From: Callorhinchus milii
Lineage: Eukaryota
Direction: 5' to 3'
DNA length: 64,000 bases
Assembly: GCF_018977255.1 (NCBI RefSeq)
Contig: NW_024704743.1
Location: 23,252,001-23,316,000, forward strand
Notes under the pieces: model-generated
What the model was told of the DNA's origin: nothing
What the model saw: only the letters and a program-made list of their open reading frames with translations
Database searches by the model: none
Translations under genes and position numbers: made by a program
Shown here: in pieces, positions 6,984-54,380 of the stretch
Layout of the letters: every line of letters begins with the position of its first letter
Position numbering within the stretch: position 1 is the first letter of the stretch

Positions 6984-9900
6984 CAACAACAACAATAACT
7001 TGCATTTATATAGCGCCCTCAACGCCGGATGGCGTCTCAGAGCGCTTTACAGTAACGGATCCCGGGGCCGAGCCAGGGGGAGGGGAGGAAGGTGACCAAA
7101 AGCGCGATCGAAAAGAAAGGTCTTCGGCAGAGAGCTGAAAATAGGAAGAGAGGGAGCGAGGCGAAGGGAGTGAGGAAGGAAGTTTTAGAGCCTCGGGGCA
7201 TAGTGGCTGAAGACACGGCCACCGAGGGTGGAGCGGAGGACTCAGGGACAAGGAGGAGGCCGGACAGGGGGGAACGAAGGCAACGGGTACTGTTTTGAGG
7301 AGAGAGGAGGTCAGAGAGCTAGTGGGGTGCAGAGGAGTGGAGGGATTTGAATACAAGGATGAGGATCTTGAAGTCGATCCTCTCTGGGACAGGCAGCCAG
7401 TGCAGTCTGGCAAGGACTGGGGTGATTGGGGAGCGGAGTGTTGTGCGGGTGAGAATGCGGGCGGCAGAGTTTTGAATGGTCTGGATTTTATGGATGGTAG
7501 TGGAGGGGAGACCGGCGAGGAGGGCGTTAGAGTAGTCCAGAGGTGACAAAGGCATTGACCAGGGTTTCAGCGGCTTTTGGAGAGAGGTATTGGCAGAGAC
7601 GGGCGATGCGTCGGAGGTGGAAGAACGCTTTGCTGTTGAGGAACCAGATGTGGGGGAGGAAGGATAATTGGGGGTTGAACCTGACGCCTAGATTGCGCAC
7701 GGGTTTGGAGAGTTTTAGGGGGAGGTCGGGTAGGTGGAGGAGGTGAGAGCCATGAGATTTTAGATGTTGACGAGAGCCACAGAGTATGGCTTCCGTCTTG
7801 TCAATGTTCAGCTGAAGGAAATTTGCGCTCATCCGGCCCTTGAGATCTGACAGGCAGGCTGAGAGAATATCAGGGGACTGGGGATCACAAAGAGAGGTGG
7901 AAAAATAGTATTGGGTGTTGTCCGCAGACATGTGGAAATGTACCCCATGTCTGTGGATGACATCCCCAAGAGGGAGCATGTAGATCAGAAAGCGGAGGGG
8001 GCCAAGGACGGATCCTTGGGGTACCCCGCAGGTGACCAGGTGAGAGCGGAAGGAGAAGTCGTTTGTGCAGATGTATTGCTGGCAGTTTGTGAGGTAGGAT
8101 TCGAACCAGGCGAGTGCGGTCCCACTGAGGTGGATGACAGAGGAAAGGCAGTGGAGGACGATGGCGTGATCGACTGTGTCGAACGCAGCGGAGAGGTCCA
8201 GGAGGACAAGGAGGCAGAAGAGCCCTGGTCACAGATAGAGAGGATGTGGTTTGTGACTTTCACAAGCGCAGTCTCTGTACTGTGGGCGGAAACCGGACTG
8301 GAGGGGTTCGAAGAGGGAATGGGAGGAGAGGTGTACGCAAAGTTGATTGGCAGCAACGCATTCTAGGATTTTGCGAGGGCGGGCTGGTTAGAAATGGGAT
8401 ATTAGTGGCTGGGGTTTGAGGGGTCCAGGAAAGGTTTTTTGAGGAGGGGTGTGATGACAGCAGTTTTGTGGGGGGCAGGGACTGATCTGGAGGAGAGGGA
8501 CTGGTTGATAGCATCAGCCAGTAGTGGGCAGAGGAGGGGGAGCTGGGTGACTAGCATGTTGATGGGAAGAGGCTCGAAGCAGCAGGTGGTGGGTTTCATG
8601 GAGGTGATGGTGGGTGGCAGGGGGGAGGGAGAGATGGGGAGGAAGGAATGTAGGATGGAGGTGGTAGGAGCAGATGATAGGGAGAGTGAGGGGTACAGAG
8701 AGGGGGTGGTGGTGGGTGACAAGAGCAGGAGGATGAGGCTGCCTGGCAGATGTTGTGAGTTTTAGATGAAAAGAAGTCCATGACCTCCTTGCACTTGGCA
8801 TTTGATATGAAGATTGAGAAGCTCCAAGGGGTGGCATGGAGGAGGTAGTGGATGGTGGAAAATAGGATTTTAGGGTTGTGTTTAGCCTCCAAGAAGATTT
8901 GGAGTAGAAGGCTATTTTTGCTTGTCAAGGAAACGGCGGTAGCTGTGGCGATGCTCGAGGCACAGTTGGTGGTGAACTGTCAAGGCAATTTTTCCACCAT
9001 CTGCGCTCAAGCAGCCGGGTTTGGATTTTTAGGCGGCGGAGATGGTTGTTGTACCAGGGGGATCGGGTGGGTTTGGAGATGGTCCTGGATTTCAGGGGAT
9101 GAGGGAGTTGAAGTTGGAGGAGAGGCGATCATGGAACAGCTGGATGGCTGCTTCAGGATCTCCGTGGGTAGAAGGCCAGAGGGATAGGATGTTTGATGAT
9201 GTGAGGGCTTTTGTGAGGGTCTCAGGTGGTAGCCTTTTCCAAGGGCAGTAGAGGATGGTTGAGGACTTGGTGGAGGAGAGAGGGATGAAAACGTGGTCCA
9301 AGATGGCCTTGTCCACTATGCTGAGGTCAGAAATGTCAAGGCCATGGGTGATAATGAGGTCAAGGGCATGACTACTGTTGTGGGTGGGTGATTTTATATG
9401 AAGGGTGAGGTTTAGGGAGGAGAGGAGGGCAGTGAAGTCAGCAAAAGTAGTGCAAGGGGTGTTTAGGTGGAGGTTGAAATTGCCCATTATGAGCAGGTGC
9501 TCGGAGCAGAGGGACAGGGAAGAGAGGAGAGTAGAGATGTCTGTGTGGAAGGAGCCGGGGGGCTTATGGGTGCGGTAGACAAGGAGGATTTTCAATGGGA
9601 GAGAGGAGTGGAAGAGGGTGAGGTTCTTGAAGGGAGGGAAGCAGCCAGAGGAGTAGGGGATGAGACCAAGGGAGGCTTTGGAAATGAAGGCCACATTGGT
9701 TTGGATGGGGTGTATGGTGGAAGGTGTAGCCTGGAGGGGAGGCTTCCACGAGTGGGACGCAGTCATTGGGGGAGAGCCAGGTTTCGGTGAGCCCAAGAAT
9801 GTCAAAGTGCTCTTCCAGGATGAGATCGTGGATGGTGAGGGCTTTATTTGAGAGGGAACGGACGTTTTGGAGGAAAATGAGGGTGGGTTTGCTGGAGGGA

Positions 9901-10489
9901 GGGGAGGGAGGGGAGGATTTTGAGGTGTACAGGAGAGATGGTTCTGGAGCATGGTGTGAGTGGAGAGTTGGGGAGGGTATGTATAAGGAAGGGGGAGTTT
10001 GGTTTGCCTTAAAGAGGCAGTTTGAGTGGAGGGAGTGAATGATTGGACACGCGGGATTGCTGCTCTGGAACAGCCATTGCCGGGAGCCACGATGGGCCCG
10101 GCGGAGGATGCCCAGGCGGGAGCAGAGGGAAGTGATGATGGGGTTGAGGAGAGAGAGAAGGTGGGGAGGGCAGTGGGAGAGGACAGAGGGGGAGTAGCGG
10201 ATAGAGGGGGGGTGGGAGGAGAGACATAGAGGGGTGGAGGGGGAGGCTCGGGTCGGGGCGGCAGCCAAAACGTGCACGCAGAGACTGAGAGCGAGTGATC
10301 AACGGGATGGCATCAGCCCTCAGGCTCAGCCTCCCAGGTCATGGCCGGGATGGCAGTGGCAGGGGCTGCCAGGACATTGTTGTTGTTGTTGTTGCTGTTT
10401 TTTTTTTACTGTGACGTCACGCCGACGTCACTTTGTGAATCGCATCCCCCGTGCCCTCACTTACCTCACTCTCCTGACTCCGCTTCCGA
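6984..10489 (-). mobile_element. L2-clade LINE, apparently full-length, frameshifted ORF2 (APE endonuclease + RT)
   Basis: QNVRSLSNK..DILGLTETWL (endonuclease); HSTETALVKVTN, PQGSVLGP, LQLNIDKTE, YSNALLAGLP..QNSAARIL..LHWLP (L2 RT and C-terminus); (GTT)n tail at ~6984; CTGTCAA duplicated at 6977-6983 and 10490-10496. Confidence 0.92.
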
Positions 10490-12206
10490 CTGTCAAAGCA
10501 TTTCCCAGGATTTACTGTAAACTGTAGTGATTGTGTGTTGAGAATATTTGTGAAGCACTTTGCGATAAGCATTCTATGTGAAAGCCGCTATACAAGTTTC
10601 AATTGCTGTTGTCCTCCTCTTGGATTGCCTTGTATGATGAAAACTCTTTCTATCATTTCACTCTCAGTCAATTGCCCATCAGCGGTTTCTATAGAACCAC
10701 AGAACCATAGTAATTTATATCTCCGAACGAGGCTATTCAGCTCATCATATTTGAGTTTACTCTCTGAAAGAGCTTCCCACTTACTTCAATTCTCCTGCCT
10801 TTCCCTGTATCATTTTATATTTATGAATAATTGTGACTTCCCTGGACCTTCTTAGGACCTTCTTCTCCCACCCTCAGTTCAGGTGGAAATCCTGAACTGT
10901 CCATAACCTTGGGACGTCCTCCCGACTTGAAGAGTGCTATATAAATATAAATTTATTCTTGTTCTTGTCCACCTCAATCCTATGAAGAGGCTTCTTCAGC
11001 CTCACCATTCTGACCCTGATGAAAGATCACACTTGAACCATTAACCCGTCCTTCTCTGTCAGGTTCCAGTTAACTGTACTTAATTCAACATTCCCAGTTT
11101 TTCTTTTTATCGCTTCAAAATGTCATGCTGTTGTTCCATGTGAAGAGCTGATCAAATGGAAATGTGACAGTTATAGAAAATCAGCACTGGGAATAAAGTT
11201 TACTTGTATTTTTATAACATCTTATTATACTGAAACACTCTCAGAGTGTTTATAGGTAACAATATGTCCTGGTTATAATGGGGTGTTTGGGTTCGATAAA
11301 TTCCCATCCTATGTTACAGGGAGACATGTTACAACAACAACAATTTCACACAAGGTAGAGTCTCAGGGGTGCGACACGAATAGCGGGGGAGGGAAAAGAC
11401 AGAGGAGGAGATAACCACAGGTGCGGTCGATAGCAGGTTTAACTGGTCCTATGCGCAACCACCAAGTATTGTAACTGGTCAATTTCTGCGCTAAGAGAAT
11501 GGCTGACTTCTGGGTGATCAAGTCATCTCGACAAAGCTTCTTGTTTTCTGTATATGCACAGCAGGACGTGACATTGGCGGTAACCTGATGACCTGGGTGT
11601 TGATTTTTTTTTCATTGTGAGAAGCAAAAAGTGGCTGATTTTCATGTCATTAAGTCACAGCTGATGCCACTCACAGCTTTGGACATGTGCAGCAACGAAA
11701 GAAGTGATAAACAGCAACCTAATGAACTGGAAATCAGCTGTAAAAGCCAGCTGGTGCAAGGCAGGACACATGTACATGCTTCGCAGGGGCCTCACTATAA
11801 GCAAATTCACGCTATAATGAATCGCATTACAGCGGGGCTACACTGAACTATGAAATGTAGTAGAAATTATGTCTGCCAGTTACAATATTCAAACAGGAAT
11901 GAGGTGAGTGATCAATTTTACCCAGAGGAATTAAAACCAGGAGAAACTCCTTTCTTTTTGCCTTCAAATGCGTTATCTTTAACATCACCTGAATCGGCAG
12001 ACAGGATCTGATTGCAAATGTCGCATTCAAAACCCAATACTTCTAACATTGCAGTGCTCTCCAGTCCTGCAGGTTCGTGTCAACCTAAATTGTGAACACA
12101 ATCCTCACAATGAATTTGAACCCACGACCTTCTAACCTGGAGGCAAGAGTGCTAAAAGCTGAGCCAGGCTAAAAGAATCAGATGCCAATGTTGAACCAGG
12201 ATTTAT

Positions 12207-16700: not shown

Positions 16701-17100
16701 ACTGCTCTTCATTGCTTTGACGAAAAAGGCACAGACTGAGAGACAAACTCCCTGCAGGCAATATGTGACGTACGGAGTGATACATATGTAAGAAGGTACA
16801 CAATTTCTCTGAGATAACTGATGCACAATTAACAAGAACAAGGAGGTTCGTGAAAGGAAATTAGAGAAAACATTAAGGAAGATGGAAAGGGAATCAAAGC
16901 AATGACCACAAACCCATTAGCTGCCTGTTTAATTGAATTATCTCATAAGACTAACCAGATTGAATTACATATCCCACATAAATTTTATATGATTAATAAC
17001 AGTGACATGCTTCAGAATGATGGTGAATATTGAACAAATCTGAAGTGAATAGTGAATACCTACCATCTGTAGATGCATTAAACAAAAAAGCATACTTCAC

Positions 17101-17590
17101 TGTTACGATGGCCCAATCATGAGTATGGATTTACTGTATTAAGAGTATAACTTTGGGAATGTTGTATTACGGTATGAGTGAAGCACGAGTGCAGAAAGAG
17201 TTAAAACAAAGGAGTGCCGCGAGGTCACAGAGACGGGCCAGTCAGCAGGGATGAGCAGTCAAGCTGGCACCAGCAGGGATGAACACATCAAGCATTGAAA
17301 TTGTGAAGACAAAGGACACACTAAATTAAAATAGCCCTAGAAGCTGTGTGTGGACATCTCAAGGTATGCAGAGATCACGGGGTAGAGGAGAGCTAGGCAC
17401 CGGAGATGAGGGAAGACTGAAGGAACAAGCAGTATCAGATAGTGAAGAATGGAATACTTGAGAACCAGGCACAGGACGGTCAAGACAAAGGAGAAAAGGG
17501 CCTGAGTAAGGGTCAGGGCACAGGCGGAAGGTCATTAGAAAGGAATGTCTCCTTAATGGAACAATTTCCAAGAACTTCGGCACGGTGTAG
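17101..17590 (+). repeat. 5' LTR, truncated and partly divergent
   Basis: First ~180 bp match the 3' LTR with 8 mismatches by manual count. Similarity then decays and the sequence runs into mid-gag. No PBS seen. Right boundary approximate. Confidence 0.75.
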
Positions 17591-17598
17591 AGACAGGC

Positions 17599-18279
17599 TT
17601 GGGGCTAAAGAGCCAAGAACTGCATGAGGCTGATCAGGACCTGAGGGAGCAGCCTACAGTGTTTATCAAAAAGCTGAGTGAGCTGTTCCTGTTAACACAA
17701 GTCTTTACTCCCGACGATGCACCCGAGACCCATGAGTTAGAGCGGTACAGAAAGAAGTTTTTGGCTGAACTGCACTGCCGTGTTAAAACATCCCTGGGAA
17801 TGTCAGTGACCCACCAAACGGACGGGGAAACCTTGATTGATATGGTCACAAAGGTGTGGGAGAACTGTCGGAAAGCCTACCCCAATGATGGACCCCTTAA
17901 ATCGACTAAAAAGGAAGTATGCGTCGTAGAGGGACCCCAGGCTAAACCAAACGCATAGAACCCCCAATATCAAAACCCGGGAAATAGATCCAACCAGGGA
18001 AATGGAAGAAAGTTTGAGCGAGGCTCCGGTAGATGAAAGCAGGGTACCAGGTCCGATTCACGTACCGCTATGCCTGTGGGCAAATGGGACACTGGGCGCG
18101 GAGTTGCCCCCAGAGGTTTGAGCTTGGTAATCTTAGGAACAATCGGAACAAGCCACCCCCAGCTTATGTGCCGGGCAACCAGACTAGCACTGTACAGTTT
18201 GACACAGGCGCAACTACAAAACATGATTGATCAATCTATAAGTAAAAGTTTAGCTGCAGGGGCAGACAGGGCGAAGTAG
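17599..18279 (+). pseudogene. gag: gag C-terminal remnant (capsid C-terminal part and nucleocapsid zinc knuckle)
   Basis: QDLREQPTVFIKKL resembles the major homology region. RYACGQMGHWARSCP is a CX2CX4HX4C knuckle with the first Cys mutated (CGC). Confidence 0.8.
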
Positions 18280-18371
18280 AACTATAGTCAGGTAGACCAG
18301 GTTATCGCATCTGCTCCTCCATAGTTGACTGGGAACGTTGATGAAAGTGAAGGGTCGACACTGTTAGACCA

Positions 18372-18760
18372 ATGACAGGATCCAGCCTCCCTGGTGCCCT
18401 TTTATCCAAGCCTGGACAACCAACCCTATGCCAGACCAGGTTGAACGGAGGCCCACCCCAACTAATGCTGATTGACACTGGGTCAAATATTACCATACTA
18501 CACTCTAGAGAACCTTCCCAGTTCCCTCATGCGACCAGACGACATCAATCAGGATTCGAGGGAATGTCCCAACGAGCTGTGCAACTTACCCACTGTACTT
18601 TATGCTTCCCTAATTGTGTTTATGTGTTTCCGAACTGGTGGCCCTGGTAGTGCCCTCCCATCGGGGCACACTGGGCTCCAATGTGTTGCTCAAATATTCT
18701 GCTATGAATGATTACGCGAATCAATATCTCTGGGTGCAGGATCCGGGCGGAGGGGGATTG
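18372..18760 (+). pseudogene. pro: Retroviral aspartic protease remnant
   Basis: MLIDTGSNITIL catalytic motif, located between gag and RT. Confidence 0.85.
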
Positions 18761-18989
18761 GTAGACTATCCTGCCAAAATATAGGATTCCCATTCAGTAT
18801 TCGCTATTAAAAAAAATTGAAGCGTATCCCCCTCTAGCATTCCCTGATTCAGAGGTAGCCGAAATTTTCCACGATTGTCCATCAGTATTAGCCGCACACA
18901 AATATGACTGCGGGACGCTGGGCACTCCCAAGCAAGTAAATGGGTCACCTCACCGGCAATGCAAGCAAAACCCGATTGAAAAAGACAGT

Positions 18990-19649
18990 CACTAGCATGT
19001 AGAGGCAACCATTGATTCCTTGCTGGAACAGGGTGTTATTCGAAAGGGATCTTTCACAGTCAATTCTCCAATTTGGCCTGCGCGAAGTCCCGATGGCAGT
19101 TGGCGATTGACTATCGACTACCGACAATTAAATCAAGTCACAGCATCCTGTGCACCCGTGGTGAGCGATTCCCCGACCTTACTGACCAGCCTTCCTCGCT
19201 CAGCCTCCTTATTCTCCACACTCGACATTTTCTAATGGAATTTGGAGTGTGCCTGTAAGCCTTCAAAGATCAATACAAGTTTGCATTCACTTTTAAAAAT
19301 CAACAGTACACATGGATTTGTATTCTGCAGGATTCCACAACGCGCCCACGATCTTCCATAAGCGAATGGCTGCGGTCTTAAAAGAGGTTGTGCATTCGGA
19401 GTATGTATTCCAGTCCGTGGATGATATCTTGATCGCCACCCCGGACTGGCACACTTGCTTGGAAGTCTTGTTGGACGTTTACACTGAGCCAGGCTAAAGA
19501 TCAATGCAAAGAAGGCACAACTGCTCAAGCTAACTGTCACTTTCCTCGGGGTCACCCTCAGCAAAGGTGGTCGTACTCCCGAAGAGGACAAAATCGACAT
19601 CCTGCAAAAGCTTCCTCTGCCTGCCTCCAAAACCGCACTCCGATCCTTT
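18990..19649 (+). pseudogene. pol: Reverse transcriptase remnant
   Basis: LEQGVIRKG..NSPIWPARSPDGSWRLTIDYRQLN, FSTLDI, GFHNAPTIFH, FQSVDDILIAT (YVDD mutated to SVDD), VTFLG. Confidence 0.93.
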
Positions 19650-20200
19650 TTGGGACTAGTGGAATACAGGCGATCGCTCGTTGTGATACTTGCCGAGACA
19701 GCCAAGTCACTGTATGAGCTCCTGAAGGGGCTAGGAGATGAGGTACAAGCCGTCTGGACTAAGGAGCACAAGCGAGCAGTAACAGTGGCAGTAGCACCAG
19801 CCACCTGCCTGATTTCACCCGACCCTACCTCCCACTTGGAGGTTGCCTCTACTACCGAAAGCCTGTCAGCGATGCTATGCCAGATGGTCAGGGACAAGCT
19901 GATCCCCATCGCATACGCCTCTCGGATCCTGATGGGGGAAGAAAATACGTTTAATGCCTGTGAAAAACACCTGTTGGTGACTTATTGGGCTGTGAAGCAT
20001 TTCACCTTCATCACTGGGCTCCAGAAGCAGGTACTATGTTCTCCACACGCCACTGAATCTTCTGCTGAAGCCTGGGGACACCCTACTTTCCTCCCAGCAT
20101 TTGAATCATTGTAAGTTGCCACTGATGGAATGCAATCTGGAGATGGTACGCCAGATAAACACTTTCTTGCCACATATGATGACCTATATGGGGATCCCAC
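19650..20200 (+). pseudogene. pol: Tether / first (Gypsy-type, non-catalytic) RNase H domain
   Basis: HLEVASTTESLSAMLCQ..PIAYASRIL...E..F..CEKHLL..YWAVKHF follows the Ty3/Gypsy RH pattern but lacks the TDAS aspartate. Confidence 0.8.
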
Positions 20201-20259
20201 ATGAATGCCCTTTACCTCGGCTGGGATTCCGTGAGAGTTTGGTGCACCGCCAAATTATA

Positions 20260-20690
20260 CCCGATGGCCGGGCGGTAGACATTGATGGATTGTCCTTTCA
20301 TGAGTGTGGGAACCCTTACACCGGGTTCGCCGTAATTATCCCACCGGACGTCGAAATTTTGTACAAATGCCAACCACACTCGGCCCAGTACGCCAAACTT
20401 GCGACACTACAGGAGGCTATCACCCATACCAGGGCACCCCCCCTACCCCGTCAATGTGTGGTGCATACGTGGTAAACAGGGTGATGATGCTACCCTTGTA
20501 TCAGGTTAATAACTTCTACACTAACGATGGTAACCACTGACGCACCGGACACTACTACGAAACATATTGCAGTTATTACAGGACCGCACAACCCCGCTCT
20601 TCTTGGGGAAGGTGAAAGGACATGCCCCAGGCTCAGACCCCACTCAATGAGTAACTTGGCAGCGGACCATGCTGCTAAGTATGCTGCATG
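20260..20690 (+). pseudogene. pol: Second (retroviral-type) RNase H domain
   Basis: DIDGLSF..G..YTGFAV, HSAQYAKLATL (SAQxAEL motif), KVKGHA, SNLAADHAAKYAA. Confidence 0.85.
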
Positions 20691-20959
20691 ACAGGCGGAG
20701 GAGTGGACTTTACACTGTCGCCTATCCGAGAACAACTTCTTGGTTGAGCCTGTTGCAACTCCTCCATCTTTGGATCTAGTAGCACTGCAAACATTGTATT
20801 CCCCCCATCGGATGGTCATCGAGTGGCACAAGGAGGGCCAAACGCTCTCGCAGCCGACCGAATGGGCCCACAAAACTATCCTCACCTCCTCTAATACTTC
20901 TCCAGAGCAACTATTGATGTACCATCCCTCCCCTACCATCGGTCTACCGGTAGCATGCA

Positions 20960-22050
20960 TTCCTCCTTACTTGGTGGAAGAAGTGTTTGCCATCTGCCAC
21001 TCACACCCTGTTTCAAGCCATGTTTCTGCTCCATTGTCCCTCCAAAACGTCCTTCGCACCATCTGGTGGCCGACGGTGGCATCGGATATTGCTGCACATA
21101 CCCATCAGTGTTTAGTGCCTACAACATAATCCACCCCCGTGTGGACAGCGGGCCTAGTTGGCCTCTGCTCCACCCCCTCAGGTTCCATGAACCCACATTC
21201 AAATTGATTTCATTGCGCCTTTACCTCCGGCACCATTGCCTGGTCATTATTGATAATACCGGTACATGTGGATAAGTGATCATGGATCCCATTTCACCGG
21301 TCAGGTGTTTTCCCAGATGCAAGTGACATTGTTTGCTGGGACCTCCCAATATTGGTAGCTACAAACTGGTTGGTTGCTTCAATACATTCCCTCATTCAGA
21401 TGACCCATTCTGTAAGTGCTCCCATTTGGATGGGATATCCGGAAGATAAAAGATAAAACAAAAGAGATAAAACAAAAGTTACACATCTCACACCACCCTC
21501 AGTCATCAGGATTAGTAGAACAGGGTAATCGAACACTAAAAACTATGTTAAAAAAGTTTTATGCAGACCACCCCACGCAGTGGACCGAGATGTTGCCGAT
21601 GTGCCTGATGGCCATCAGAGCAACCCCCAACCCTCGGATATCGCCCTACCAGGCCATGACAGGGAGACTGATGATAACTCCAGACCAGGTAATGGTCCCA
21701 AGTGTGACTCCCATCCAAATGGAAGCACTTACAGAATGGGTCATCTGAATGAGGGAATGTATTGAAGCAACCAACCAGTTTGTGGCTACCAAAATTGGGA
21801 GGTCCCAGCAAACAATGAGGAAGTGCTTCAGTAAAAAGATTAAACTGGCCGAATACCAAGTTGATGACCCGGTTATGGTGCTTGGTTATGGGAAGAAGGA
21901 CCACCCCTTTTGTCCAAAATATCAGGGGCCTTTCCCCATAGTGGAGAAAGCCAGCTCATCAGTATAGTTAGTACAATACACAAAAAATGGCAGAAAACGT
22001 ATTCGGTGGCACCACATTAACCAACTTAAAAACGGAAATGAGCTGATAGG
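20960..22050 (+). pseudogene. pol: Integrase remnant with GPY/F motif
   Basis: HSHPVSSH...WWP...QCLV (HHCC region), SDHGSHFTGQVF, HHPQSSGLVEQGNRTLK, W..MLP..LMAIRATPN..ISPY..MTGR, KYQGPFPIVEK. Has an internal deletion and an inverted insertion. Confidence 0.9.
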
Positions 22051-22060
22051 AACTGGTTCC

Positions 22061-22084
22061 ACACTTATATCTTTCAGAGCCATG
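22061..22084 (+). promoter_or_regulatory. Putative env splice acceptor and start codon
   Basis: ACACTTATATCTTTCAG|AGCCATG: pyrimidine tract, CAG, then GCCATG just after the integrase ends. Confidence 0.55.
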
Positions 22085-24527
22085 ATGGGAGGATGATTAT
22101 GCCTCCTACTACTGGGATTCTTCAAATACCTGTCAGTCGAAGGGGTCCGACCTGGACCAATTCTCCTACCGATGAGACGGTTCGACTGCGGGGTATTGCA
22201 TGTGACGGGACCATCAGCAGCAACCATTGCAACTGAATGTTCGGGCAAGCTTCAAGTGCGATTTCACTACACTCAGATATCCAGTGGTGGAAAAGGGGGA
22301 GAACGGATGGACTACTTGATGGCCGACTGTTCCAGATCGAACCCACGAGGGTTAACAAGACAAACTCATCTTGGATCAAGCTTGCAATCGGCAACTCAGA
22401 TATACCAGGGGTCTACTGGCCAGTGTTTGTGCTATGGAACAACCCTTCTACTGACCTCAGAAACTTAGCTCAGAATGGACTCTGTCGGTGGAACCAAAAC
22501 GGGACTAAGTTTAACACAACGGTAAATGTTGTGGATACAGTATACTGATGCATTCCAAGCAATGGGCTGCAGACGCAGAATGTTAATGTAATATAGTGTA
22601 ATAAGTCAGCGCCTGTCGGTACGGTCGAGATATTCTTTTATTTTAAGATGCATGTTACATATAGATGGGATAGTGTGGACCTATAAGGAGAGTAAGTACA
22701 CGGGCGAGTAGAACGTGTACCCGGTAACCATCTCAGTGAAAAAAAGTTGTAGGCCTCTAAAACGGGGAACGGCTCTCCCGGAAACACCCGCTACTTCCGC
22801 CCCGGCCAGGTGGGGATATCTTACATACAAACCTCACAGGGCAGAAACCTCAATGGCTGTTGCACTTGCCCTACATCTATACTCGGGGTGAGGGCTTATG
22901 TAAATGTGGGATGGATATAGAGCCAGGTTGCTCAACCCTGGTGGAGGATGCTCTGGGCAAGTACGACACCTTCCGTTAGAAGTGGAGGACGAACCTAAAT
23001 CATTGCGGAAAGGGTCATATGGGGATGTGACCTTCACCCCAGGCCCCAGTAATTGTCTGGTGGCCCAGGTCACACAGCAGCAGGTACATGTTGGGGTTCA
23101 GTATGAGACATACCAGATAATTTTGGATATGTCGAGACTCGACCTCCCTGCAGGATTGTGTGACCCAGCACTACCAGGAGTGGAAAGGCCATGTGATACA
23201 ACAATACCTGGCCCAATTCCATTAAGATACCGCTATCATCCACGCCCTTAAACTATCGAAATGGGCAAAAAGATCACTCACGGACTGGGTAGCGGAGGGT
23301 GCAGCCTCCAGGGTGGGACTAAATTGTTTGGACATAGAGAACCAATGCTACGAATCCCAAAGGTTACAAGAGGCACTGAAGAGCCTGTTATTTAAATTAA
23401 ATAATCCATGAAATGGGTGAGGGAGTCTTATCATTTAACGATGTGGTTAAAGTTTTGGCCACCACTTAGGTTAAGGTAAGTGCAATACTGGCAAATCAGG
23501 ATGATCGTGCGGCAAATGCCTCCTGAGCAATCACTTGCTCCTTGTACCTGATCTATGTACAGCAAATGGTCCAATCCACTTTCCTCTCACTACAGCAGAA
23601 CCGCCTTCCTGCTTGATTCTCCGATCCCCAATTAGAAGACGTAGTGCCCGGAGAGGTCAATTTCTGCTTAGTGAGACAATTTACTCAGGTCAAACTGGTG
23701 CCTCGAGAATATCTAGGTTCCCCCTCACTGGATAACATTGGATTAGTACTCCGGGTACCACGATTCTGATCACTGCAGCCGTCCCCACTGTTTGAAGTCG
23801 CATCCATAGGTGTCATACGGCAGGGTCACTGGGTACAGCATGCCCAACACCCCTCGTTCATCATGCATGTAAATGCAACACATTGGAAGGGGATCCGATT
23901 GACTAATTGTTGATGCTGGGGTGATACTTGGGTATGTCCACCGGAAGACTCTTCTACCTCTTGTGGGTTTACCCTGTTCTCCACTTCCCCAGAATGTGGG
24001 ATGATCATAACCTCACATTGGTCTGGAACTTTGGTGTCTTATAAGGGATTGGGGGAATACTGCTATACCTCATCTGAAACCACCTTCCAGGTAGAGCTGC
24101 AAGAATGCCCCTCCCATACACCAGTGCATGCTTCTCCCCTACGATCCCAGTAAGAATAGGAACCTACCACGTTGATCACAAAATTGTCCATAACATGACC
24201 CGAATTCAGCAACATTCCAACCTCCATTGAGAGGCACTGGAGGCAATTGCCTGATTCGGTCACCCTATACTGCCCTTGTCCCTGAGCCTAGACCAAATTC
24301 AACAGCAGGATATTACCTCACAAAAATATTTTATCCACATGCAGCAGCAAACCCAAAAGACCAACGATTCCTTTAGACATTTAGGAAACCATCACTGGTG
24401 GCAGGTAGTGTACAACGTAGGACAGAACCCCTTCACTCTCCTGGCATCATATACCTTCCTGGTGGTCCACGTAACAATGACTATAATACTAATCTGGTCT
24501 GTCCGATGGGTTCGCAGCATGGTTTGA
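22082..24527 (+). pseudogene. env: env: class I fusion glycoprotein resembling Mononegavirales F, fragmented
   Basis: Signal-peptide-like start (MMGG*LCLLLLGFF); several N-glycosylation sequons; cleavage site WAKR|SLTDWVAEGAAS at 23262-23273; GLVLRVP..LFEVASIGVI followed by a Cys-rich block; C-terminal hydrophobic segment FTLLASYTFLVVHVTMTIILIW. Confidence 0.8.
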
Positions 24528-24608
24528 AAATTACAACACCAACGGTCCCAAATGGACTTCGTAGTCTTGATGCAAAAGTGAGGGGTCGATACTGGGTATC
24601 TCCCCCTC

Positions 24609-24619
24609 AAGGTGGGGAC
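24609..24619 (+). promoter_or_regulatory. Polypurine tract (plus-strand primer)
   Basis: AAGGTGGGGAC directly precedes the TG start of the 3' LTR. Confidence 0.75.
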
Positions 24620-25542
24620 TGTTAAGATGGCCCAATCATGAGTATGGATTTACTGTGTTAAGAGTATAACTTTGGGAATGTTGTATTACGGTATGAGTGA
24701 AGTACGAGTACGGAAAGAGTTAAAACAAGGGAGTACCGCAAGGTCACAGAGACGGGCCAGTCAGCAGGGATGAGCAGTCAAGCTGGCACCAGCAGGGATA
24801 TATATGTCAAGGATTGAAATAGTGAAGGCAAAGGACACACTAAATTAATCAGTGCGAGAAGCTGTGTAGACAATAGGAATAGAGATAGCAGGATCACGAG
24901 TAGGTCTGGATAACGTCGAGACCTGGGAAAAAGAATAAGAATAGAAGCAAAAGAGGTAGAGAGTCATAACAGTTGGGGAATACGAGGTGGAAGCCGAGAT
25001 CTCCAGCCTGCCCCAGTTGTCCAGACTACGAGAACAGGTAGTATGTTTTCGGTTGTTCTGTTTTACAGGCAGGGAAGTGCTAGTTACAGAAATGAGCGCC
25101 GGGTCTAAGACTCAGTAGATAGGCTGGGCAGCACGAGAGAGGTGGTGGGGTATGCTGTATATCCCGATGAAGATAGGGCCACTCTGTGACTTTGAGTGTT
25201 TAGTGTTAAGGGCTGCAGGTGCTGTGAGGGTCAGTTGTCTGAAGGGCAATTCCAGAGGTTGACCTCCATACCAGCGCCGGTTAAAGGACAGTATTGAGGA
25301 TTGTCTGGCTTCCGAGGTGCGAAACAAGACCCAATCTGCAGTATCTGTCCACAGTTAAAGGACAGTGTGTGTTGTGCATTGGCGCCGGGTCAAAGTGCCG
25401 AGTGATTTGGAAAGGTACATTGTATGTTTGAGTGTATAAGTGTTGAATGATTTTAGTAATATTGTAATTGTGTAATAAAAAGCCATCTCACCTTAATAAA
25501 CAAGCTTTCATACTCTTATCACTGGCTTGCGGTTTGTTTACA
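24620..25542 (+). repeat. 3' LTR (923 bp)
   Basis: TGT...ACA termini, purine tract immediately upstream, AATAAA at 25474 and 25495, TSD TCAC immediately downstream. Confidence 0.92.
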
Positions 25543-25799
25543 TCACCTCACCCATAATCCATAGAGCAAGAACATGCCCCAGTCTACCAGGGAGCAGCAG
25601 GGAAAAGTTCAGTACAAAAACAAAGGAATAGATGGTTTGAGCAAGTTGTTCACAACTGGAAAATAAACATTGCAACTGTGAAAGATCTCACAAGCTGCAG
25701 TATAGTGCTCATAAACACTTAATATCAAAAATCATCCCTGATAACGTGCCATTTATGTACACCATACATATATAGAAACATTCAGACTGTGAGTTCCTA

Positions 25800-31184: not shown

Positions 31185-31502
31185 AATAATAACAATAATA
31201 ATCCTTGCATTTGATATAACGCTTTTCACGTCTTCTAGACATCTTAAAGCACTTCACAGAATGGACTGTAAAGTGAATTGACTGTATATTTGTGGGCGAA
31301 ACCCGGCAGCCAATTGCACACAGCAGTGTCCCACAAACAATCGTGGATTGAAAATGAACAATTTATTATTGTTTTGTTTTGGAGGGATTATTATTAGGCG
31401 TGTGGAGTAAGGAAACTTGCCCAAGGTTTCGCCCTGCCTGGAATTGAACCCAGGTGTCTCACTTGCAAGGCGAGTGCTCTAACCACTGAGCTACAGGACT
31501 CC
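31185..31502 (-). mobile_element. Young tRNA SINE, full-length
   Basis: Reverse-complement family copy ending GAGCTACAGGACTCC. Confidence 0.88.
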
Positions 31503-34154: not shown

Positions 34155-35175
34155 TCAGCTCAGTGGTTAGAGCACTGGGTTTGATTCCCGGCAGAGCAAA
34201 ACACTAGGCAAGTTTCCTAACTCCACGTGCCTCTGTGTAGAGATAGGGGAAAAGGGTTAACCAATCAGAAAATAATATAGGGTTAAAATCATACTAATAA
34301 GGTTAGAGAGCACCAACAAAGTGGAGTAATGATAAGTTAGAAACTGTAATCACAAGGCTGGAACAAAGAACATTTAAAGGAGGAGGCAATAACCTTATAG
34401 ATAAAGAAGTGGAACAGACCGAACAAGTCATTAATAGAGCTGTTTCAAAAAGGAGCCAAGGTTTAGACGTGCAAAACAAGCCTGGGAAACAAGTTTGGGC
34501 CATGGGAATGAGACGTGATCAAGTGGAGTTATTACGGGGATGGAGCACGATCAAGAGAGTACATAAAGGTGGTCGCACCTAGTACAGAAACCCTCCTTGA
34601 AATACTTGAGATAGGAAGAGAGTAGACAATGCTGAGAGATTAGGAGAAGTCACACATAACTATTAAAAGGATATATGCACGCAGATTCAGCGCTAAAAAT
34701 AGAGGATGACTGAAATAAAAGGCACGAAGTAGAAGAGTTATGCAGAAAGACTTGAGATGAGAAGCAGTGAGGTCCGTAAGGAAAGAAGACTTTTTCCATT
34801 CCGAGTGTGGTGTTATCGCAGGTAATATATATTTTGAATGTTATGCTGGATAAACCTGTATACTAATGTGCCAATATAATATCAATGTTAATGCAGAGAT
34901 TGTTGTTGCTTGTGTGTGAATAAAGACCTTTTCTTTGAATCATTGTGTCAACTCGCATTGAGTAAACTGGCGTTCTGCTAAACCTTACATCTGTTTACCT
35001 AGCAGTAAGTAGGAACCTGGTTGTTTGTTGATTGGAGGATCGCTTTTCCAGGGGTAACAATTCCTTCACAAAAAAATAATAATAATAAATTGGTTACTCA
35101 ATCTACGATTGTTTGTGAGACACTGCTGTGCGCAATTGGCTGCCGCGTTTTGCCCACAAAATATACAGTCAATTC
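34155..35175 (+). mobile_element. Young SINE split by a solo LTR and truncated by an L2
   Basis: Head at 34155-34235; body resumes at 34990-35175. Confidence 0.82.
34236..34989 (+). mobile_element. Solo LTR (754 bp) inserted in a SINE
   Basis: TGTAG...TTACA termini, TCTG duplicated at 34232-34235 and 34990-34993, AATAAA near the 3' end. SINE consensus GCCTCTG|TTTACCTAG is restored when the LTR is removed. Confidence 0.88.
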
Positions 35176-36635
35176 AGACTTCCCTTTTCTTTTGAAGATC
35201 CTTGAAAGAGTTGTTGCTTCCTGGCTTCGCTCATTGTTGCTTCCTAGTTCAATCTCCTACCACACCCTTCATGTGCCCCTCCAATCAGATTTCCATGCTG
35301 CTCACAGTACAGAAACTGCTCTGGTCAAGGTGACAAACAATATTTTGTCCATCTATGACCAGGGCTCCCTCTGCCTCCTCTTCCTCTTCGACCTCTCTGC
35401 TGCCTTTGATACCGTGGGCCGCTCCATCCTCCTCCACCGCCTCTCCTCTCACCTCAACCTTCAAGGTTCTGTCCTTGAGTGGTACAGGTCTTATCTCTCA
35501 CACCGTCTCCAATTTGTCTCCGCCAATGCTTTCTCTTTCAGCCCCCGCATAGTCTTGTGTGGTGTTCCTCAGGGCTCTATCCTCGGTCCCCTCCTCTTCA
35601 ACCTCTATATGCTCCCCCTTAGTGACATCATCTGCAGACATGGGGTCAACTTCCATATGTACGTGGATGACATCCAACTCTATCTCTCTGCCTGCACCCT
35701 CGATTCCAGGACAACTGACCTTATGACAGACTGTCTGTCTGACATGAAGTCCTGGATGAGAGTCAACTTTCTACAGCTGAATGTCAGCAAGACTGAGGCC
35801 CTCCTGATTGGCTCCCGTCAGTGCTTCAGCACCTCAGGCACCTGCAGCATCAGCACCCACAGTTGCACATTCCACCTCACCAAGCCCGTTAGGAACCTGG
35901 ACATCATTTTCAACCCTCAACTGTCCTTTCTCCCCTTTATCCGTGCCATGACCCACTCTGCCTTCCCCCACCTCTACAAAATTGCCCGACTCCGCAACTG
36001 CCTCACCCCTCAGGCTGCCAAACCCTCATATATGCATTTGTCACTTCAAGGTTGGACTACGAAAATTCCCTTCTTGTTGATCTCCCCAAGTCTTCCCTCC
36101 ACCAGCTGCAGATTATCCAAAACTCTGCAGCTCGTGTCCTCTCCTGCACCAGGCTCCATGACCCCATCACCCCCACCCTACCTGGCTCCACTGGCTCCCC
36201 ATCCCTCAGAGGGTAGAATTCAAAACCCTTGTCCTCACTTTCAAGGTCCTCCACGGCTTTGCCCCCTCATGCATCTCTGACCTGCTGATCCACTATCAAC
36301 CTGTCCGCTGCCTCCATTCAGCAGGCTCCAGTCTGCTCCAGGTCTCCCGCCTGACCCACCCTACCATTGGCGGCCAGGCTTTCAGCCTCTCTGCCCCCAC
36401 TCTTTCGAACTCCATCCCACTATCCCTTCGCTTCGCTGCCTCTCTTGCCTCCTTCAAGTCACGACTCAAGACCTTCTTTATTGACCATGCCTTCAGCCGC
36501 CCTCCTATCCCTTCTGCCTTCCCTCATCCCAACCCTGCCCCCCACATTAGGGTCCTGATCCCTCACTCTTCAGCCCCTTGGGACGTCCTCCCGACATGAA
36601 AGGTGCTTTATAAATGTAATTTTGTTGTTGTTGTT
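35176..36635 (+). mobile_element. 5'-truncated L2 LINE (RT region to 3' tail)
   Basis: HSTETALVKVTNN, DLSAAFDTV, GVPQGSILGPLLFNLYM, YVDDIQLY, LHWLP; (TTG)n tail. Confidence 0.92.
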
Positions 36636-37896: not shown

Positions 37897-38218
37897 GGAG
37901 TCCTGTAGCTCAGTGGTTAGAGCACTCGCTTTGCAAGTGAGAGACCTGAGTTCAATTCCAGGCAGGGCGAAACCTTGGGCAAGTTTCCTTACTTCACACA
38001 GAGCCTAATAATAATCCCTCCAAAAACAAAACAATAATAAATTGGTCATTTTCAATCTACGACTGGTTGTGGGGCATTGCTGTGTGCGATTGGCTGCCGC
38101 GTTCGCCCACAAATATACAGTCAATTAACTTTACAGTGTGTTCTGTGAAGCGCTTTGGGATGTCCTCCCGACGTGAAAAACACTATATCAAATGCAAGGA
38201 TTATTATTATTATTATTA
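37897..38218 (+). mobile_element. Young tRNA-derived Deu-domain SINE, full-length
   Basis: GGAGTCCTGTAGCTCAGTGGTTAGAGCAC (A box) and GAGTTCAATTCC (B box); GCTGTGTGCGATTGGCTGCCGCGTT core; L2-like tail with (TTA)n. Confidence 0.9.
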
Positions 38219-52202: not shown

Positions 52203-54380
52203 CAACAACAACAACACAATTACATTTGTAAAGTGTCTTTCACGTCGGAAGAATGTCTGAGTTACGGACACGAGCTGGGGGTAGGGGAGGGTGGAGGGCA
52301 GGGGGGAAGCAGAGAGATCGAAAGCACGGTCAAAGAAGAGGGTCTTGAGATGGGTCTTGAAGGTGGCAAGGGAGGGGGTGAGGCAGAGGGACTGCGGGGT
52401 GGAGTTCCAGAGGGTGGGAGCAGAGTTGTGGAAGGCCCACTTGCCAATGGTGGGGCGAGCGAGGCGGGGACGTGAACCAGGCCAGAACCCGCTGAGCAGA
52501 GGGAACGAACAGGATGGTAGGGGGCTAGGAGGTTGCAGAGGTATGGGGAAGCAAGACCATGGAAGGCTTTGAAGGTGAGGACCAGGATCTTGAACTGTAT
52601 CCTCTGTGTGATAGGAAGTCAGTGCAGTTTGGCAAAGATAGAGGTGATAGGGCCGCAGAGCCTAGTGCAAAAAAGGACACGGGCTGCAGAGTTCTGGATG
52701 ATCTGCAGCCTGTGGAGGGAGGAATTGGGAGGCCGACAAGCAATGAGTTTGCAAAGTCAAACCTCAGTGTACTGAAAGCATGTATGAGGGTTTTGGCGGA
52801 CTGAGGTGTGAGACAGTGGCAGAGCTAAGTGACATTGCGGAGGTGGGGGAAGGCAGAGCAGGTCATGGCGCAGATGTGATGTAGAAAGGATAGGTCTGGG
52901 TCAAACAAGACGCCAAGATTCCAGACTGGTTTAGTAAGGTGGAGTGTGCAACCATGGATGGTGATGCTGCCAGCACCTGAGGTGTGGAGGCGCAGACGGG
53001 AGCCAATCAGGAAGGCTTTGGTCTTGTTGATATTCAACTGAAGAAATTCAGCTCTCATCCAGGATAGTAGTGGTCCTGGAGTTGAAGGTGGAGGCAGAGA
53101 GGTAGAATTGGGTGTCATCTGCATACATGTGGAAGTTGACCCCATGTCTATGGATGATAATAATAATAATAATAACAATCCTTGCATTTGATATAGCGCT
53201 TGTCACATCTTCTAGACGTCTCAAAGCGTTTCACAGAATAGACTGTAAAGTGAATTGACTGTATATTTGTGGGCAAAATGCGGCAGCCAATTGTGCACAG
53301 CAATGTCCCACAAACAGTCATGGATTGAACATGACCAATTTATCATTGTTTTGCTTTCGAGGGATTATCATTAGGCGTGTGGAGTAAGGAAACTTGCCCA
53401 AGCTTCATTCTGCCTGGAATTGAACCCAGTGTCTCGCTTGCAAGGCGAGTGCTCTAACCACTGAGCTACAGGACTCTACGATGTCACCAAGAGGGAGCAT
53501 ATAGATATTGAAGAGGAGGGGACCAAGGACAGAATCCTGAGGAACACCACACAAAATGGTCCAGAGGCTAGAGAAGAAGCCGTTTGTGGAGATGAAGTGC
53601 AGGCAGTGTGAGAGGTACGATCTGAACCAGTTAAGGACAGAGCCATGAAGGTTGAGATGAGAGGAGAGGCGATGGATGAGGATAGAGTGGTTGACGGTGT
53701 CTAAAGCAGCAGAAAGGTCAAAGACGATGAGGAGGCTGAGGGAGCCCTGGTCGCAGATGGACAGAATGTCATTTGTCACTTTGACCAGGGCTGTTTCTGT
53801 GCTGATGGTGGTATGGAAACCCAATTGGAGGGATTCGAGAAGCTGGTGGCGGGAGAGGAAGGAGCAAAGCTGAGAAGCAACAATTCGCTCCATGATCTTG
53901 GAGAGGTTGGACATGAGGCGGTAGTTAGGGAGTAGAGTGGGGATTAGGGAGGTTTTTTAATGATAGGAGTGATGACAGCGATTTTTAATAGGGAACGGTA
54001 GCAGAGGACAGGGAGAGGTTTCAATGTTAGTGAGTAGTGGGGCAAGGAGGCAGAGCTGGAAGGTAAGGAGAGGGGGTAGGGGTGAGGTCGAGGGAGCAGG
54101 TGGTCGGTTTCATATGGGTTATGGTGGTGATGAGAGAGGAGGGGAAGACAGGTTCAAAGGTGTGGAGGGAGGGATGTGTAGGGGCCAGGGTGGGAGGAGG
54201 AGATGGGGAGGGGGTAGCAGATGCAGTGGCAGAGGCAGCTGAGCGGATTCCCTTGACTCTGGATTTGAGAAAGTCCAACATCGTCTCGCAGTTTAGATCA
54301 TTCCTGAAAAGAATAAGAGGCACACAGCATCCCAACGTTAGTAGTAAGGAACTGTGAGTTAAGGAAGCTGACATCCCTTC
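52203..54380 (-). mobile_element. 5'-truncated L2 LINE interrupted by a SINE
   Basis: STETALVKVTND, DLSAALDTV, GVPQDSVLGPLLF; RT continues on the other side of the SINE at 53159-53475; (GTT)n tail at ~52203. Confidence 0.9.
53159..53475 (-). mobile_element. Young tRNA SINE inserted into L2 RT
   Basis: Full family copy with L2 coding sequence contiguous across it. Confidence 0.88.

Follow-up and report, generated by a model that had tools for sequence, protein, structure and literature searches.

What kind of envelope did the virus that left this broken env gene in the Callorhinchus milii genome carry, and from which retroviral lineage did it come? The initial annotation of the 64,000-nucleotide stretch analysed here (the window) described an env with the architecture of a paramyxovirus or pneumovirus F protein rather than a retroviral SU/TM, and saw in it the fossil of a fusogen common to retroviruses and negative-strand RNA viruses. 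The idea of a retroviral F-type Env is already published for lokiretroviruses and foamy viruses, as the available portions of PMC7947760 and PMC11468914 describe. Here we consider it highly probable that the locus is the dead env of an ancient snakehead retrovirus (SnRV)-like, class III endogenous retrovirus (ERV) of a cartilaginous fish, whose Env had an F-type class I fusion core. The value of the finding lies in the lineage, an env swap, a sequence link to the lokiretrovirus (loki) Env and a shark gene, and not in the dead locus.

The provirus and its env remnant

The env belongs to a decayed provirus at 17101-25542 on the + strand, delimited by LTR comparison and by reading of the flanks in the 64-kb window. 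Gag, pol and env follow in that order between an LTR pair, all on the + strand, and the 5' target-site duplication TCAC (17097-17100) is repeated at 25543-25546. Only the first 250 or so nucleotides of the 5' LTR remain (17101-17349); its remainder, the primer-binding site and the 5' part of gag are absent. The 3' LTR (24620-25542, 923 nt, TG...CA), recognized by its sequence and its match with the 5' remnant, is preceded by a polypurine-tract-like stretch at 24609-24619. The LTRs align over 246 comparable columns with a K2P divergence of 0.082. A mammalian rate converts this to about 19 My and the tenfold slower one adopted in PMC4422223 to about 190 My; the age of the provirus, depending as it does on the rate, is poorly fixed.

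The gag remnant (17350-18130, start approximate) contains one CCHC zinc knuckle at 18069-18113 (Pfam zf-CCHC, E 3.6e-5). The broken pol (18465-22033) was recognized with Pfam and by tblastn with the Xenopus Pol P0001, 1127 of whose 1184 residues are covered. Its domains run in the order protease, RT, tether (19755-20009), second RNase H and integrase (zinc-binding part 20959-21114), and the same searches identify it as a dual RNase H Pol. A 109-nt inverted copy of 21709-21817 is inserted in the integrase region on the - strand (21327-21435, arms 97% complementary); in the genome's second copy of the provirus this stretch is single and forward-placed. The locus is an ordinary dead provirus and makes no protein today.

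Elsewhere in the window, RT-containing fragments at 35009-36280 (+) and 7527-8228 (-) match RVT_1 (E 4e-22 and 5e-16) and are probably LINEs, with more inverted copies within the window. Three tRNA-Ala(TGC)-like calls (31430-31499, 37900-37969 and 53406-53474) adjoin an abundant short repeat family and are probably SINE heads. The stretch 7000-10500 is strongly G-rich on the + strand (GC skew up to 0.59) and includes a 406-codon stop-free frame on the - strand with no Pfam match.

The broken env spans 22085-24551 on the + strand. Its start had been placed at 22990, which misses the first 900 nt. A signal-peptide-like stretch with one internal stop, judged by eye from the translation, lies at 22085-22147, and an N-terminal arm of about 300 codons follows at 22148-22976, with a counterpart found only in the genome's second copy. 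An F2-like beta strand (23033-23161), aligned with residues 186-229 of the shark protein P0121 described below, stands ahead of the SU/TM cleavage-site position (23262-23273), which was located by motif search and the alignment of relatives. The next segment (23274-23324) aligns with the one that follows the basic site in P0121 and a second shark protein, P0139, and is putatively the fusion peptide. A heptad or helical region, the core beta sheet and Cys-rich F1-like domains occupy 23325-24126, with a frame change near 23403. The gene ends in a membrane-proximal helix, TM (24441-24503) and short tail (24129-24551 in all), 38-42% identical to P0121 and P0139. The TM helix begins about 390 codons after the cleavage position, close to the 400 or so first reported.

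All nine of the previously quoted env motifs that were searched for are present: VHVGVQ...PAGLC (23084), WAKR (23262), SLTDWVAEGAAS (23274), VGLN (23313), GLVLRVP (23740), LFEVASIGVI (23788), WGDTWVCPP (23917), EYCYTS (24055) and ECP (24103). They are spread over three different frames. Comparison with the second copy places about six frame changes near 22290, 22845, 22965, 23165, 23403 and 24110, and two 3' env pieces alone hold eight in-frame stops (5 + 3). A regular-expression search of the three + frames over 22001-24620 returned no CX6CC, no ISD-like L[QE]N[RH] and no intact R-x-K/R-R, in agreement with the reported absence of gamma-type TM motifs. The proposed basic cleavage site holds for the intact relatives, which read RRKR, RKRR, RRRR or RVKR at the equivalent place, but not for the window, where WAKR at 23262 is no furin consensus. 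Seven of the nine cysteines of the window core piece are conserved in 94-100% of aligned relatives.

Seven F-type copies were measured for the distance between pol and the Env core: it is about 980 nt in two of them, the window and its sister copy, and 500-800 nt in the remaining five. The sister copy L070 matches Pfam Ig_3 (E 1.6e-4) and ig (8e-4), both below Pfam cut-offs, and L074 does so more weakly. A strand motif of 40 residues links L070 to the second copy (E 9e-5), with its window counterpart at about 22780-22976 (+). This last part of the arm corresponds to the Ig-like module of the sister copies, through which an Ig fold may be attributed to it; a direct Pfam Ig test on the window's own arm was blank. 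The N-terminus of P0139 reached Ig clusters of the ESM Atlas at only 0.81-0.83, and for A5 compared with the arm of the second copy the value was 4%. Taken with the relatives, the arm likely holds an Ig-like receptor-binding module. The frog Pol model P0002 runs on into an Ig-like env start (residues 1214-1291, Ig_3 E 0.012), which suggests that frog relatives may carry an equivalent arm.

Lineage of Pol and relatives of Env

The best Pol matches of the window are frog and coelacanth proteins, distinct from loki-type Pol. The nearest named proteins are annotated NYNRIN-like, NYNRIN being presumably the same as CGIN1. An RT tree of 45 rows, anchored on P0001 and with no SnRV, foamy or named epsilonretrovirus Pol among them, groups the window with Xenopus P0001 and further copies of its own genome in one clade (UFBoot 97) and sets the loki-type rows apart in another (UFBoot 100). 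The IN tree (FastTree, 46 rows) agrees in setting the window apart from loki-type Pol. A grouping of the window with loki was rejected (AU p=0.006, 25 of the 45 rows, quick tree). The window RT branch is long (0.76-0.9), in part owing to off-frame residues, and falls in no small starred clade of the AU-test tree. By tblastn the RT-tether piece is 37-39% identical to P0001-P0006 types versus 30-32% to loki types. By these sequence comparisons the window Pol lies outside the loki clade.

Its RT resembles that of SnRV rather than ZFERV-2 or AciFLERV when published sequences are compared by eye. The genome copy L059, which groups with the window Pol, has an ISD-CX6CC peptide equal by eye to that of CmiERV lineage I, a lineage placed with SnRV by Han 2015 (PMC4422223). 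We infer from this anchor, set by eye and through L059, that the window Pol is SnRV-like (class III). The window is not itself the published complete CmiERV, 0 of 4 motifs being found in the available supplement of PMC4422223.

The element has one close sister in its own genome (73% DNA identity). There are 26 genome matches to the window core piece; with the intact shark protein P0121 as query at least 53 were obtained, 61 out of 79 candidates having been scored. No full-length open env was found among the own-genome loci examined. A phmmer search over 1.8 billion representatives gave seven matches, which are five shark proteins and two repeat artefacts (P0122 and P0127), the latter dropped as Env relatives. 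A word-index search with the window core matched 0 of 502 candidates, and no relatives turned up when viral and metagenome contigs were scanned.

Full-length homologues of 739-754 aa were found in Chiloscyllium punctatum (P0121), Scyliorhinus torazame (P0139) and Heterodontus francisci (P0140); the accessions of the intact shark proteins are GCC29952.1, XP_072333160.1 and XP_067889054.1. Their alignment with the window is collinear, begins at the F2-like strand, ends at the TM and shows 27-42% identity. P0140 matches the window in three collinear pieces with a summed E of 1e-53; the best of these scores 110 bits, compared with at most 26 bits in 40 shuffles. The three proteins are 85-88% identical to each other without gaps across three shark orders. 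Identity is 82-84% for the N-terminal arm, rises to 88-97% for core and stem and drops to 47-62% for the tail. They form clusters of 1 and 2 members, versus 24 for a young frog ERV Pol. No orthologue-level match was found in the window's own genome, where the best strong matches reach 33-45%. We regard P0121, P0139 and P0140 as a candidate domesticated env, which by sequence conservation would be older than the split of the three orders; the rival explanation is a retrovirus that spread across shark species.

Forty-three stretches, chosen for pol or env matches, were examined for their type of Env. An F-type Env scores above 150 bits in 17 of them (many by construction, being in the profile), 13 of which have a same-strand pol. 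Three copies of the window's Pol clade (L059, L061 and L082) have a gamma-type TM, and none carries both Env types. The env swap within one Pol clade is clear. Copies with F-type and gamma-type env are separated in the IN tree with modest support (0.89 and 0.92), and in the RT tree the gamma-env copies are nested among the F-env copies. The suggested direction is the replacement of F-type by gamma-type.

The copy L077, which by eye matches the lamprey element Loki-Lca almost letter for letter, provided a control Env outside the family profile. This loki Env scores 95.5% against the profile (E 1.4e-8), and the 256 matched columns include the GV/GT-W strand and the Cys-rich block; the gamma-type Env of L059, which does match TLV_coat, scores 0.2%. 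On this profile evidence the window-type Env is homologous to the lamprey-type loki Env. The available portions of PMC9040795 (Wang and Han) state that canonical and loki Env are without detectable similarity and for that reason prefer separate origins. An Env that sits on a canonical SnRV-like Pol and is homologous to loki Env would weaken that argument.

L077 (G000:C548:27000-34000) and L076 (C466) are near-intact lokiretrovirus Pol and Env sequences on small contigs, both nearly identical to Loki-Lca when compared by eye; further loki-like Pol matches are on C771 and C909. The L077 and L076 sequences most likely represent lamprey DNA that contaminates the assembly, or otherwise the product of a very recent cross-species jump. 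L078, L086, L084 and L085 represent two more young-looking ERV families outside the SnRV-like clade; L078 and L086 have a CX6CC Env.

Fold of the Env core

No window env frame matches Pfam Fusion_gly, which had been proposed as a check, or any other Pfam family. Among 32 relative rows one matched at E 0.2, and a true lokiretrovirus Env in two pieces was likewise missed. Sequence-profile searches of the PDB gave nothing under E 0.1, and F only at E 1.5-5.8. A genome-wide PF00523 search gave no matches and is uninformative, as its controls were blank too.

Structure comparison, the other proposed check, gave matches to RSV, hMPV, hPIV3 and NDV F for a model of an intact shark homologue and weak ones for the window piece. 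The natural protein P0139 was folded with a 32-row alignment (mean pLDDT 56, core 391-610 mostly 65-87); the N-terminal arm of the model is unreliable, and pLDDT is below 50 over 353 of 754 residues. Foldseek returned 268 PDB chains at E<=0.001 (best RSV F, 1.4e-10), every row among the matches listed being a paramyxo- or pneumovirus F, with low TM-scores (0.31-0.48 by target) and rmsd of 6-35 A. In a VIA structure search the top 11 rows (Z 8.8-6.4) are all F or foamy Env and the first unrelated row stands at 5.3. NDV F is first (Z 8.8, rmsd 19.6, 294 aligned), then GhV, PIV5, hPIV3 (Z 8.2, rmsd 6.3, 304 aligned) and measles F. Foamy Env follows (Z 7.6, rmsd 5.8, 282 aligned), its Z differing by about 1 at most from those of the F proteins, and then pneumovirus F. 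The model becomes alignable with F proteins at about residue 204, the region of the F2-like strand. The aligned nested core (204-617) is beta-rich, and about 300 of its residues align with F at Z 7.2-8.8. Identity in these structural alignments is 10-14%, with no significant sequence match.

In BFVD the P0139 model has 58 matches at E<=0.001, among them granulovirus F (1.9e-11), WEHV-1 Env (6.2e-11) and mumps F (8.2e-11). An unnamed 928-residue protein, invertebrate-virus glycoproteins and a fish filovirus glycoprotein also rank above mumps F, and WDSV Env (1.4e-9) and feline foamy Env (8.6e-6) below it. The language-model search of the ESM Atlas places Fusion_gly, Baculo_F and Gypsy clusters first (0.94-0.95). 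The top BFVD match, A0A384ZVF2 with 928 residues and E 9.7e-14, is listed without a name. Predicted walleye epsilonretrovirus Env proteins (BFVD Q9WHI8 and A4GTG3) match the P0139 model at E 6e-11 and 1.4e-9; the reviews, in their available portions, call epsilonretrovirus Env uncharacterised.

The window's own 242-codon piece was folded with its stops as X (mean pLDDT 66), a middling confidence like that of the P0139 model. Its best Foldseek match is at 1.5e-3, none reaching 0.001, and those listed are all F or foamy Env. In VIA foamy Env is at the top with Z 6.0, a level common according to the tool, and RSV F has 5.2. No gp41- or gamma-TM-type fold ranks high; EIAV gp45 appears at Z 4.7 among coiled-coil rows, which excludes nothing.

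The predicted F-type fold of the Env core is well supported through the homologue and weakly supported when read directly from the window's own piece. The architecture first proposed stands in so far as the modelled ectodomain core is F-like and neither gamma- nor beta-type, but the wording "rather than SU/TM" was too strong because a large SU-like N-terminal arm is present. The models indicate a broad F-type fold and not one specific to paramyxoviruses. The idea of a shared fusogen retains the F-type fold and loses any special link to negative-strand viruses, because foamy Env and the predicted structures of baculovirus F, epsilonretrovirus Env and several invertebrate-virus glycoproteins score comparably.

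Origin of the envelope and its known counterparts

The Env of the living virus would have been a glycoprotein that spans the membrane once, starting with a signal peptide and continuing with the N-terminal arm and a class I fusion core of the F type. The arm would probably have bound the receptor through its Ig-like module. Host furin would have cut at the basic site and freed the fusion peptide, the short F2-like strand staying woven into the core sheet. The heptad region could then have refolded into a trimeric hairpin and merged the membranes, as in paramyxo- and pneumovirus F and foamy Env.

Other origins have to be weighed against this. A fish foamy-like ERV, in which an F-like Env would be expected, accounts for the first place of foamy Env in the VIA search with the window piece and its tie with F for P0139, and a 4-bp target-site duplication is typical of foamy viruses. 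We find this distinctly improbable, as the Gag has a CCHC knuckle, the RT by eye is like that of SnRV, and the window's Pol clade includes copies matching the SnRV-clustering CmiERV lineage I; the knuckle is absent in spumaviruses according to the available text of PMC2717909. That a lokiretrovirus was missed in cartilaginous fishes by the published screen is very improbable. The Env is homologous to loki Env, the Pol has a dual RNase H and its nearest named proteins are NYNRIN-like, the loki integrase being close to CGIN1 (PMC7947760), but the RT and IN trees, the AU test and the RT-tether identities all speak for a Pol apart from loki types, and loki Env lacks the long N-terminal arm. Loki membership of the window Pol was rejected on the AU test.

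A direct capture of the Env by this lineage, with a paramyxo- or pneumovirus as donor and independent of the loki and foamy viruses, would explain why Mononegavirales F proteins are the best solved-structure matches. We judge it highly unlikely: the PDB is rich in F, other F-type fusogens do equally well or better in BFVD, and sequence homology is detectable with loki Env and not with F. Even less credence is due to the reading that the likeness to F comes from long helices in a weak model, a signal generic to class I proteins. It fits the low TM-scores, the high rmsd and the many low-pLDDT residues, but the aligned range is the beta-rich core, and the independent language-model search also puts F-type clusters first. 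The dead env of an SnRV-like ERV with an F-type core thus remains our preferred reading.

F-type retroviral Env proteins are known in two groups, the lokiretroviruses and foamy viruses, and the SnRV-like lineage would be a third. Together with the solved foamy Env and the predicted walleye epsilonretrovirus Env, this speaks for an early F-type envelope, with the gamma type taking its place later. A wider reading, possible though in our judgement somewhat short of probable, is that the F-type fusogen was the ancestral envelope of vertebrate retroviruses (common to loki, foamy, epsilon and SnRV-like lineages), that gamma-type Env replaced it repeatedly, and that sharks domesticated one F-type env. 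If true, the shark gene would be syncytin-like and derive from a class of fusogens for which no co-option is known. The intact conserved shark protein offers a natural full-length member for structural and functional work and a candidate captured env gene.

Within an incomplete coverage of the literature we found no publication that describes an SnRV-like Pol together with an F-type Env, a shark env gene that was co-opted, one Pol clade with either F-type or gamma-type Env, or sequence homology of such an Env to loki Env. The first two are absent from the available portions of PMC3758190, PMC8278194, PMC4977317, PMC2717909, PMC12583693, PMC11521997 and PMC13709493 and of bioRxiv 2021.11.23.469661, 2024.03.17.585361 and 2021.11.05.467493. 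What has been published, so far as the available texts go, includes SnRV-like ERVs in the elephant shark (PMC4422223) and F-like Env in invertebrate errantiviruses (bioRxiv 10.1101/2023.10.26.564294).

The known systems resemble the window element in different parts. Lokiretrovirus Env is likewise F-type, with signal peptide, basic cleavage site, fusion peptide, coiled coil and TM, and the virus shares with the window a dual RNase H Pol and Env homology over 256 columns (PMC7947760). The window differs in a Pol outside the loki clade and in the extra arm of about 300 codons; lokiretroviruses were found in 0 of 6 chondrichthyan genomes in the same source. Foamy Env has the same F-type core by structure and, as in the window, a long TM subunit of about 400 residues; it has its receptor-binding domain inserted just upstream of the furin site and a membrane-anchored leader peptide (PMC11468914). 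The window Env has instead an extra module N-terminal to the F2-like strand, and its Gag a CCHC knuckle. The paramyxo- and pneumovirus F (PF00523), baculovirus F and errantivirus Env (bioRxiv 10.1101/2023.10.26.564294) are alike in fold and domain order; the differences are the added N-terminal arm, a structural-alignment identity of 10-14% and the lack of a significant sequence match. XtERV-S combines a class III gag-pol with an env type uncoupled from Pol, as here, but its Env is gamma-type and that of the window F-type (PMC8278194). Nearest in Pol is CmiERV lineage I, of the same clade as the window by the L059 peptide identity seen by eye; its Env is gamma-type (PMC4422223), and the window is a different element with an F-type Env.
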